A stretch of DNA of 24,053 nt from a virus (Duplodnaviria; Caudoviricetes): IMG/VR virus record IMGVR_UViG_3300027656_000048, positions 1 through 24,053 of that record; one strand, given 5' to 3'. Shown piece after piece: positions 17,904 through 23,523 of this stretch (position 1 is its first letter; each line of letters opens with the position of its first letter). The notes below the pieces were generated by a model. That model was given only the letters and a program-made list of their open reading frames with translations. It was not told where the DNA came from and made no database searches. A program made the translations under genes and the position numbers.

Positions 17904-18107
17904 ATGGCTACAAACAAACACGCAGAATTCACAACAATCGTAGAAGCAATGACAGCAGACTTTGAAAAGTTTTATGACAAAGAAGTTGGCGCTGCCGGAA
18001 CTCGCGTTCGCAAGCATTGTCAAGATTTAGCAAAACTTTGCAAAGAAACTCGTAACGATGTTACCGCAGTTAAGAACGCAAGAGCCGAAGCAAAAGAAGC
18101 AAAATAA
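17904..18107 (+). CDS. Hc1-like (histone H1-like) nucleoid protein
   Basis: AAGGAG SD; DFEKF...AAGTRVRK...LAKLCKE-x-R core typical of short Hc1 homologues. Confidence 0.7.
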   Translation: MATNKHAEFTTIVEAMTADFEKFYDKEVGAAGTRVRKHCQDLAKLCKETRNDVTAVKNARAEAKEAK

Positions 18108-19211: not shown

Positions 19212-19607
19212 ATGACTATGCATTTAGAAGGCCCGTGGCTGAGTACCATCGGCAAAAAGAAAGGCAAACAAAAATTTGCCTCTGCAGATCATGCTAGAAA
19301 GTCTAGAGAATTGGACGAATCTTGGAAAGAACTCCAAAAGAAATGGTCTGTGGAAATTGAAGATAGGAAACGTAAGCGAGCCATGAATGCCGCACCGTTG
19401 AAAGACTCTTACAGTCTTGCTATTCCAGAAGGCCGTAATACCACTGCTCATATTCCTAGTAGAGACACCGGCGGTAATGCTTTGTTAAAACCTAATCCTG
19501 TTTATACAGGAACCAAAGTCAAAGGCATTGCCACTATGCATAAAAGTAATGCAGTACCGGTATTCAGTGATGAAGAAGCAGTTGACATTTCAAAAATGCG
19601 TCGATAA
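19212..19607 (+). CDS. basic hypothetical phage protein
   Basis: Start at 19212 or 19218 (downstream of the promoter); C-terminal YTG...GIATMHKSNAVPVF motif familiar from T4-like phage hypotheticals. Confidence 0.75.
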   Translation: MTMHLEGPWLSTIGKKKGKQKFASADHARKSRELDESWKELQKKWSVEIEDRKRKRAMNAAPLKDSYSLAIPEGRNTTAHIPSRDTGGNALLKPNPVYTGTKVKGIATMHKSNAVPVFSDEEAVDISKMRR

Positions 19608-19654
19608 TCATCAGTTCTATGGTATATTTTGGATTTATATGGTATATATTAGAC

Positions 19655-19896
19655 GTTTCGCAAAGAAACTAAGATAGTTGACATGATGAAGATATCATCA
19701 AAATCATGTCCGCGGGTCTTGGCCAATGAGAAACCCGTATTTTCGGGAAGCCAAGGGTCGCCAAAGGTACTGAGTGTTATGAACTCAGTGGCTAATGGAG
19801 ACAACTACACGAAAGTAGGGTTCTTTCAGAGCCTCGTGAAGTTAACTCCCTTTATGTAATGTTGTAGTAATACAACACCAAGTCAAAGGAGGACTT
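19655..19896 (+). ncRNA. candidate structured cis-regulatory leader RNA upstream of cell-wall hydrolase
   Basis: Seven successive stems in the longest intergenic gap of the window, including a GNRA-capped 7-bp hairpin and an SD-containing hairpin. Confidence 0.6.
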
Positions 19897-20451
19897 ATGG
19901 AAAAATTATTTAGATTTACAGCCTATGTTATGGGCTTGGTTTTAGTAGTCATGTTGGTTCAAAATGTTACTCAAACCAAAATGGAAAAACTACGTGAGGG
20001 TCAGATGTTATTATCGCCTGATATTGTTTCGATCAAGACCAGAGAACGACAACTCGATTGTCTAGCAATGAATATCTATCGTGAAGCAGGACATGAAAAC
20101 TTTGAAGGCAAAGTAGCAGTAGCACAAGTCACTATGAACAGGGCGTCTCATCCCTCGTTCCCAAAAGATGTCTGTGCAGTTGTTTTTCAAAAATCAGTAT
20201 TTGTAGACAGGGTCATTTGCCAATTCTCATGGTACTGTGACACTGCTCATAAATCTAGACCAGTTAACCAGAGCGCATACAATGAAAGCATGGCTGTGGC
20301 TAAAAAGGTACTATTGGAAGGCTTTCGACTTGACGTAATGAAAGAAGCATTGTATTATCATGCTAACTACGTCAATCCTCAATGGAACTTAGAAAAAATT
20401 GGATCAATCGGTAATCACATCTTCTACAAAGGAAAGAAAACAAATGGTTAA
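19897..20451 (+). CDS. cell-wall hydrolase, SleB/Hydrolase_2 family, N-terminal signal anchor
   Basis: CLAMNIYREA, AVAQVTMNR, CQFSW, ALYYHANYVNPQW, IGNHIFY. Confidence 0.92.
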   Translation: MEKLFRFTAYVMGLVLVVMLVQNVTQTKMEKLREGQMLLSPDIVSIKTRERQLDCLAMNIYREAGHENFEGKVAVAQVTMNRASHPSFPKDVCAVVFQKSVFVDRVICQFSWYCDTAHKSRPVNQSAYNESMAVAKKVLLEGFRLDVMKEALYYHANYVNPQWNLEKIGSIGNHIFYKGKKTNG

Positions 20452-22930: not shown

Positions 22931-23300
22931 TAAATTGTTCAATCAAAATATCAACTACTTGTTAATCAAACCCAGTACTGAGACTAAGATTCAGTTTCAA
23001 CAGATATTATCACAATTGGTAGATGATATAAACGTTTTTATATTTGACGAAAACGAAACTGACTTAGATTGGATGTTGAGTGTGTCGCATCAATGCGATG
23101 CAGTGATTATTGACATTGACAATTGTGACCTGATCACAAAAAGTTTTGTGAGTTATCTGTTGTCCTTCCCATATGTTCATTATCTAACCAATGACGAAAC
23201 CACGCCGTGGAAATTTATCAGCAAAAATAGAATTTACAATTTGGACATTTTGATTCAAGCAGAAGAAGAAGATGACGAGGAAGAAATCGATGAAGAATAA
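22893..23300 (+). CDS. hypothetical protein with acidic C-terminal tail
   Basis: ORF from first ATG; alternating beta/alpha pattern. Confidence 0.7.
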   Translation: MNLGKLNLITPPDKLFNQNINYLLIKPSTETKIQFQQILSQLVDDINVFIFDENETDLDWMLSVSHQCDAVIIDIDNCDLITKSFVSYLLSFPYVHYLTNDETTPWKFISKNRIYNLDILIQAEEEDDEEEIDEE

Positions 23301-23523
23301 TCATCTCAAAGGCACTGTTGTAGTTGTAAAGGATGGCGAGGATTTTAATCGTGCTCTGCGCCGTTTTAAAAATAAAGTAGAAGACAGCGGTAAATTGAAA
23401 GATATTCAAAAGAAAGAATTCTACGAAAAACCCACCACAGAGCGTAAGCGTAAAAAAGGTGCCGCACGAGCACGTTGGCGCAAGCAGATGGAAAAAGAGC
23501 AATTACCTAAAAAAATGTATTGA
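23290..23523 (+). CDS. rpsU: ribosomal protein bS21
   Basis: GAGGA SD; VKDGEDFNRALRRFK...G...EFYEKPTTERKRKK. Confidence 0.92.
   Translation: MKNNHLKGTVVVVKDGEDFNRALRRFKNKVEDSGKLKDIQKKEFYEKPTTERKRKKGAARARWRKQMEKEQLPKKMY

Follow-up and report, generated by a model that had tools for sequence, protein, structure and literature searches.

The window analysed here, a stretch of 24,053 nt, was taken from IMG/VR and represents a 24-kb piece of a large tailed phage; its exonuclease is 45-49% identical to the exonucleases of GAP32/Rak2-like jumbo phages. On the plus strand, a 290-nt gap (19608-19896) precedes a gene (19897..20451) coding for a SleB-type cell wall hydrolase of 184 aa, a predicted lytic transglycosylase with an N-terminal hydrophobic segment. 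Its assignment to the SleB/Hydrolase_2 family is predicted from the PF07486 domain (E 5.5e-25) and the catalytic Glu: the protein matches the SleB structures 4f55 and 4fet in an alignment spanning this residue, and among the matches listed Glu63 is conserved in 97/97 full-length homologues and the hydrophobic N-terminus is present in 112 of 113. The gap harbors a structured leader (19655-19896), and the genomes of leader-bearing relatives reach up to 364-372 kb. A separate GH19 lysozyme is encoded in three of five genomes (G001-G003), which makes a role of the leader in lysis timing uncertain, and G003 additionally encodes a 3-TM holin. Given these genes, the leader-controlled enzyme may serve in wall remodelling or as a helper in lysis and not be the main endolysin. 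Genes for a histone H1-like Hc1 protein (17904-18107) and for ribosomal protein bS21 (23272-23523) are located near the leader in the window; PMC9723584 deals with bS21 phages, and no link to the leader emerged from the sections of that paper that were available. The leader-bearing phage G003 also carries CsgG and CsgF curli secretion genes and a heme oxygenase with bilin reductase (L608:4282-8227).

Copies of the leader were sought in viral contigs by one protein-based scan and five pattern scans, and by one scan each in metagenomes and GTDB; together these yielded at least 446 parsed leader instances, at least 143 of them distinct at full length. Contig-end fragments, chance pattern matches, internally deleted copies, one copy with a TnpB insertion and one with a deleted gene start were left out before counting, and the divergent copy L468 was put into the alignments by hand. 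The copies diverge to about 48% identity and are carried by large, mostly freshwater phages. Among the matches listed, 118 full-length copies precede a SleB-type gene, 19 precede an RlpA-type gene (PF03330) and six are too truncated to classify, so that 137 of the 137 classifiable copies stand before a lytic transglycosylase gene of one of two unrelated families (PF07486 or PF03330). The GTDB scan returned one match, on a 4.3-kb MAG contig, which was not taken as evidence for a host. Named phage records contained no DNA match to the leader, and four cultured GAP32/Rak2-like phages possessed neither the leader nor a Hydrolase_2 gene; thus, no cultured host system was found.

Complete or near-complete genomes encode either SleB or RlpA and never both (RlpA without SleB in G001 and G002, SleB without RlpA in G003-G005), and a single leader copy was present in each of four leader-bearing genomes searched, with none in G006. 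The gene found upstream of the leader in the window (the conserved ORF 19212-19607) accompanies 93 of 95 SleB copies and none of 19 RlpA copies among the matches listed. The RlpA copies therefore reside in other neighborhoods, which argues that the leader moved with the enzyme gene and not with the locus. On the tree of leaders, those of RlpA genes cluster together in a single group (support 72/93), so the gene swap may have been a single event. Presence of the leader is not a constant of the SleB locus: it was found at 10 of the best 80 SleB loci, and eight loci with the same upstream gene are devoid of it. The leaders of L221, L235, L271, L284, L496 and L162 either have internal deletions affecting the 5' or core region or lack the SD and the gene start, which would reflect natural decay or assembly error. 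In L098, and also in L119, an element with a TnpB-like ORF, which we take from its N-terminal sequence to be IS200/IS605-like, sits in the P9 region of the leader.

The leader folds with a minimum free energy of -79.7 kcal/mol, compared to -55.5 +/- 4.7 kcal/mol for shuffled sequences (z -5.11), and none of 200 shuffles was as low. A mostly coding stretch of the minus strand (2149-2420), which extends into the leader of ORF 2151-1882, folds equally well (z -5.04), so the z-score alone is no proof of a functional RNA and the case rests on comparison. RNAalifold applied to a plain MAFFT alignment of 47 representatives revealed 43 pairs, 18 of them with two-sided changes. In a 60-row alignment fitted to the proposed model, 35 of 68 pairs showed two-sided changes and 90% of cells paired, a level reached by none of 500 shuffles and far above the slid-alignment controls; this alignment leans towards the model to which it was fitted, and its rows are related and not independent. 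The comparison of homologous leaders proposed in the preliminary description thus uncovered covariation, and the central claim made there, an undescribed conserved structured cis leader of a phage peptidoglycan hydrolase, holds with respect to the PF07486 domain, the covariation and the Rfam searches. The covarying helix groups are P2, P5, P6, P7 and P9; P1 and P4 are nearly invariant and P3 varies on one side only. Altogether, 45 leader positions are invariant, some of which are unpaired in both of the states described below.

The leader begins with P1 (19655..19669), an invariant 5-bp hairpin with a GNRA-like loop that is paired in 100% of cases and shows no two-sided change. It is followed by the invariant segment J1/2 (19670..19679) and by the variable hairpin P2 (19680..19710), in which six of seven pairs carry two-sided changes. 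P3 (19712..19761) joins 19712-23 to 19750-61 around a purine-rich internal loop (19724-33) and P4 (19734-47); it is 91% paired and its 5' strand is nearly invariant. RNAalifold also found a competing arrangement in which J1/2 is predicted to pair with 19712-20 and to extend P2. This extended P2 is 100% paired, six of its seven pairs never vary, its junction mismatch is replaced by a standard pair in 8 of 60 rows, and U-to-C changes are absent from the G-U pairs of J1/2. Loop L4 (19738..19743) is predicted to form a pseudoknot with the bulge 19812-17; this contact is moderately supported by the alignment, with 6/6 pairs in the window, 63.5% of cells pairing across rows and a covariation of 0.231 against 0.121 in shuffles and 0.174 at slide +1. 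Next comes P5 (19758..19801), a hairpin at 19766-93 on top of a switchable base in which 19758-63 pairs with 19796-801. Two-sided changes occur in seven of nine pairs of the P5 group, the base is 93% paired, and a variant with a 1-nt deletion, represented by 10 rows, has a perfect 5-bp base in all 10. The irregular stem P6/P7 (19797..19849), in which both P6 and P7 show two-sided changes, is closed by 19797-800 with 19846-49, and the closing pairs are invariant and 99% paired.

The 3' strand of this closure has a second partner. The anti-SD:SD helix (19846-55 with 19882-91; whole element 19846..19891) carries the covarying hairpin P9 (19860-77) and is 98% paired; it contains a non-standard pair at 19853/19884 (A.G in 44/60 rows, U.C in 11/60). 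The helix shows a co-insertion in L128/L473 and a compensation in L468, and the divergent leaders L468 and L470 retain the pairing with altered letters. The internal loop 19856-59/19878-81 is near-invariant. An alternative pairing of the anti-SD had already been proposed from the single sequence, and the comparison bears it out: strand 19846-49 can pair with either 19797-800 or the SD. The individual motifs on which that proposal drew were located correctly, namely the P1 arms (19655/19665), the P2 arms (19680/19703), the complementary segments 19712/19733, 19718/19750, 19734/19744, 19768/19783, 19797/19846, 19860/19871 and 19880/19892, the anti-SD (19846-53), the SD (19885-92) and GCCAA at 19722, 19750 and 19760. 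Several readings attached to these motifs did not survive the alignment. In the mutually exclusive 5' helix 19712-17/19733-38, the central pair is disrupted in 53 of the 60 rows; the complete set of three GCCAA copies is present in six rows only and the five-pair hairpin enclosing the SD in only eight. Judging from these rows, all three are chance features of one sequence.

Folding computations suggest that two overall states lie close in energy and that their parts are coupled. In the ensemble, P3 (0.78) coexists with extended P2 (0.18), and P6 closure (0.58) with the anti-SD helix (0.31). The computed energy of the state with the SD blocked (OFF) minus that with the SD open (ON) had a median of +2.2 kcal/mol, and the two states lay within 5 kcal/mol of each other in 50 of 60 rows; the computation leaves out the pseudoknot and overstates the ON energies of the 10 rows that carry the deletion. 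Forcing extended P2 raised predicted anti-SD pairing to 0.65, compared with 0.27 when P3 was imposed, with an increase in 51 and a decrease in two of the 60 rows. When extended P2 was forced and the relay strand blocked, anti-SD pairing fell to 0.36, whereas it stayed at 0.65 upon blocking of a neighboring control strand. Weak coupling was computed for L365 and L470. Removing or unpairing the 5' segment barely altered predicted blocking of the SD (0.31 to 0.35 in one computation and 0.31 in another). In simulated elongation, the helices that prime the OFF state came back in about half of the rows, with extended P2 dominant in 30 of the 60 shortly before emergence of the anti-SD; in the growing chain of the window's leader, the favored helix changed from extended P2 to P3, back to extended P2 and again to P3, and at equilibrium this leader is predicted to be ON (anti-SD 0.06). 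Two-sided changes were found in two of 20 pairs of the OFF helices, a value equalled or exceeded in 14 of 500 shuffles; as these helices are nearly invariant, covariation cannot confirm them.

A promoter-like TATATA (19643..19648, plus strand) stands before P1 and is likely a variant of TAAATA, which we take to be the T4 late promoter type. Among the matches listed, 134 of 141 leaders have TAWATA 6-9 nt upstream of P1. Of the other seven, three (L128, L501 and L513) possess a tandemly duplicated P1 hairpin, and here the promoter-like motif stands before the first of the repeats. In G003, TAAATA ranks first among directional intergenic motifs, with 24 tandem-gene cases compared to two for its complement, and in G001 it is also among the top ones. 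These motifs suggest that transcription would be late and would start at about 19652-55. By inspection, the leader contains no conserved TAWATA copy, a predicted sigma70-like site (19678-707) falls in the variable P2, and no terminator was called between the leader and the gene. All eight metatranscriptome runs examined, of 18 listed, contain contigs over parts of the leader, and in X1 and X8 contigs run from the upstream gene through the leader; such contigs are uninformative on strand, start and level. A different motif, TACTTA, possibly a third promoter class, is overrepresented in the intergenic regions of G001 (L613-L631) at a distance of about 25 nt from the tandem genes that follow it (22 cases), and also precedes SleB in L011, L012 and L023.

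Riboswitches of the c-di-AMP (ydaO) and c-di-GMP classes control wall enzymes, and the leader resembles these and other translational riboswitches in having a structured 5' part, an anti-SD platform and an association with peptidoglycan enzymes. In contrast to them, it is confined to phages and has no counterpart in Rfam 15: the window gave no match at gathering score, c-di-GMP and c-di-AMP families gave none at E<=10 in 19500-20000, and 20 diverse loci, 18 of which carry the leader, gave none at E<=1. The connection with cyclic-dinucleotide riboswitches envisaged in the preliminary description thus found no support. As in riboswitches generally, the conserved structure stands 5' of genes with related functions (137/137 classifiable copies among the matches listed, with apparently one swap event). 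Mutually exclusive folds of an expression platform are predicted by folding and computed to be coupled, but are not confirmable by covariation. FMN and cobalamin riboswitches contain a T-loop/pseudoknot module, and in many leader homologues L4 is a T-loop-like loop of 7 nt, the two final bases of which are able to pair with a distant strand. The likeness is limited to this module: the order of helices differs, the FMN and cobalamin family models gave no match, and the loop in the window is a 6-nt variant. In the MS2 maturation-gene leader and hok mRNA, metastable long-range alternative folds time the translation of a structural or toxic protein. The leader shares with them the alternative long-range folds, without homology and without an antisense partner having been found for it.

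The nearest analogue is the leader of T4 gene e, where, according to the account in PMC3014915, a simple hairpin inhibits translation of the lysozyme until late promoters give transcripts lacking the 5' strand of the hairpin, so that the SD of a wall-degrading enzyme is hidden in RNA structure and early expression avoided. Sequestration of the SD in a helix is common to both, in our case in the predicted anti-SD helix. Unlike in gene e as described there, the late-like promoter precedes the 245-nt leader in its entirety, with no conserved copy inside the structure, and in place of a simple hairpin there are some nine helices, together with a decoy SD and alternatives that are predicted to be chained. 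PMC10690425 describes two candidates that share downstream domains and an aquatic tailed-phage origin with the leader: DNAVirus_262 (45 nt, 31/31 before Hydrolase_2, 30 of them freshwater) and DNAVirus_786 (74 nt, 24 before DPBB_1). In the portions available, both are far shorter and are presented without a mechanism, and one of them, compared by description and not by sequence, could be a fragment of the leader and might overlap its 3' end. The Streptococcus yjbJ motif of PMC11109978 appears unrelated in the part of that source consulted. The leader RNA was not found described in the literature compared; the supplement of PMC5737381 and the alignments of PMC10690425 lie outside that comparison and may bear on its novelty. 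The leader is a real and apparently undescribed phage RNA family and a likely translational switch. Resemblances to TPP, SAM and glmS RNAs were rejected. A permuted group I intron core (J1/2 with 19802-07, P7-like) was discarded as well, since 67 of 142 copies have A at position 19679, the partner segment varies and no Rfam match exists, and so was a leader-peptide attenuator, its ORF (19683-19859) beginning inside P2, a hairpin variable in sequence and length.

Taken over all conceivable triggers, the leader probably switches, as the folding models suggest. In the ON state, J1/2 would be free, P3 would be formed, the decoy GGAG would close P6 and the SD would be open. In the OFF state, J1/2 (19671-78) would pair with 19712-20 and extend P2; strand 19758-63, released from P3, would then capture the decoy GGAG at 19796-801; and 19846-49, thereby set free, would pair with the SD and block translation. 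Our preferred though tentative reading is that the leader of these lytic transglycosylase genes is a two-state translational switch gated by a protein that binds the invariant 5' module, acting on P1-J1/2. We infer a protein because the invariance of P1 and J1/2 exceeds what pairing by itself demands and because phages seldom carry known ligand riboswitches. The likely purpose would be to withhold a membrane-targeted wall-cutting enzyme until late infection. Phage RegB, RegA and CsrA were found in none of five genomes (for RegB and RegA, the search lacked a positive control), and a Pfam scan of 300 of the 417 ORFs of G003 returned no cyclic-dinucleotide enzyme and no known translational repressor. 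Other sites perfectly complementary to J1/2, as expected for an antisense partner, occurred at chance level and in unrelated places, with none in G002, G004 and G005.

The same chained switch might instead be a true riboswitch, with a P1-P4 core that is locked in one state by binding a small molecule or ion, such as a nucleotide signal or a product of wall turnover. The complex fold with its predicted tertiary contact, the 45 invariant positions including those unpaired in both states, the retention before two unrelated enzymes of one activity and the decision window of simulated elongation would all fit such an RNA. We nevertheless regard this as unlikely, as Rfam riboswitch families do not match, two pairing partners account for most of the invariant positions, bacterial genomes are devoid of the leader except for the 4.3-kb MAG contig, and phage genomes rarely contain known riboswitches according to the available part of PMC5473149. 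A switch without any partner, trapped OFF during transcription and relaxing to ON as a folding timer, or responding to temperature, seems doubtful. States within a few kcal/mol of each other, the alternation of the favored helix in the growing chain of the window and a full-length equilibrium that is mostly ON speak for it. It leaves unexplained, however, the invariant sequence of P1, the missing U-to-C changes in J1/2 and the near-invariant internal loop 19856-59/19878-81, and the toehold 19721-23 should presumably speed the exchange of helices.

There may also be one working fold and no switch, the leader being a static damper or stabiliser of translation or a stand-alone phage RNA co-transcribed by chance. 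Covariation is indeed confined to scaffold helices, the OFF helices may be chance complementarity of invariant segments (a chance estimated at roughly 1-2% for extended P2), and some copies tolerate internal deletions or the TnpB insertion. Against a static RNA stand the lack of a called terminator before the gene, the anti-SD helix, which links the leader to the start site and has compensations, and the movement of the leader with the enzyme gene, and we consider it improbable, on a par with the riboswitch. That the leader is a chance structure of an intergenic region, as the equal z-score of another stretch of the window might hint, is refuted by the two-sided covariation of five helix groups in copies down to about 48% identity and has almost no probability left. 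In our ranking, the protein-gated switch thus comes first, ahead of the riboswitch and the static RNA, with the timer behind them.

To our knowledge, hardly any large cis-regulatory RNAs have been described from lytic phages. The present data define a well-bounded RNA family with a concrete three-step switch model, and the leader stayed before a wall-cutting enzyme even after this enzyme was replaced by an unrelated one. Finding the trigger of the putative switch would reveal the signal that a jumbo phage reads before attacking or remodelling the host wall and could yield a new RNA-binding regulator or, alternatively, a new riboswitch. A riboswitch class native to lytic jumbo phages, which senses a host metabolite or wall-turnover signal and times the wall-cutting enzyme through three chained swaps and a decoy SD, would be the more far-reaching outcome, and an unlikely one.

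Leaders of other types were observed before SleB. In G006 (L009:2245-2503 and L010), a different structured leader of about 250 nt (z -2.7) with its own anti-SD-like stretch precedes SleB at the same locus, and the model of the 245-base leader does not match it. A third type, seen in L023, L025, L035 and L040 at about 2355-2503, is shorter, combines two small hairpins with a conserved 3' block and precedes SleB behind the same upstream gene. The SleB gene seems to attract structured leaders repeatedly. In other phages (L041, L058, L059, L060, L066 and L071), SleB lies directly 3' of a tmRNA-like gene and its hairpin, as read by eye.
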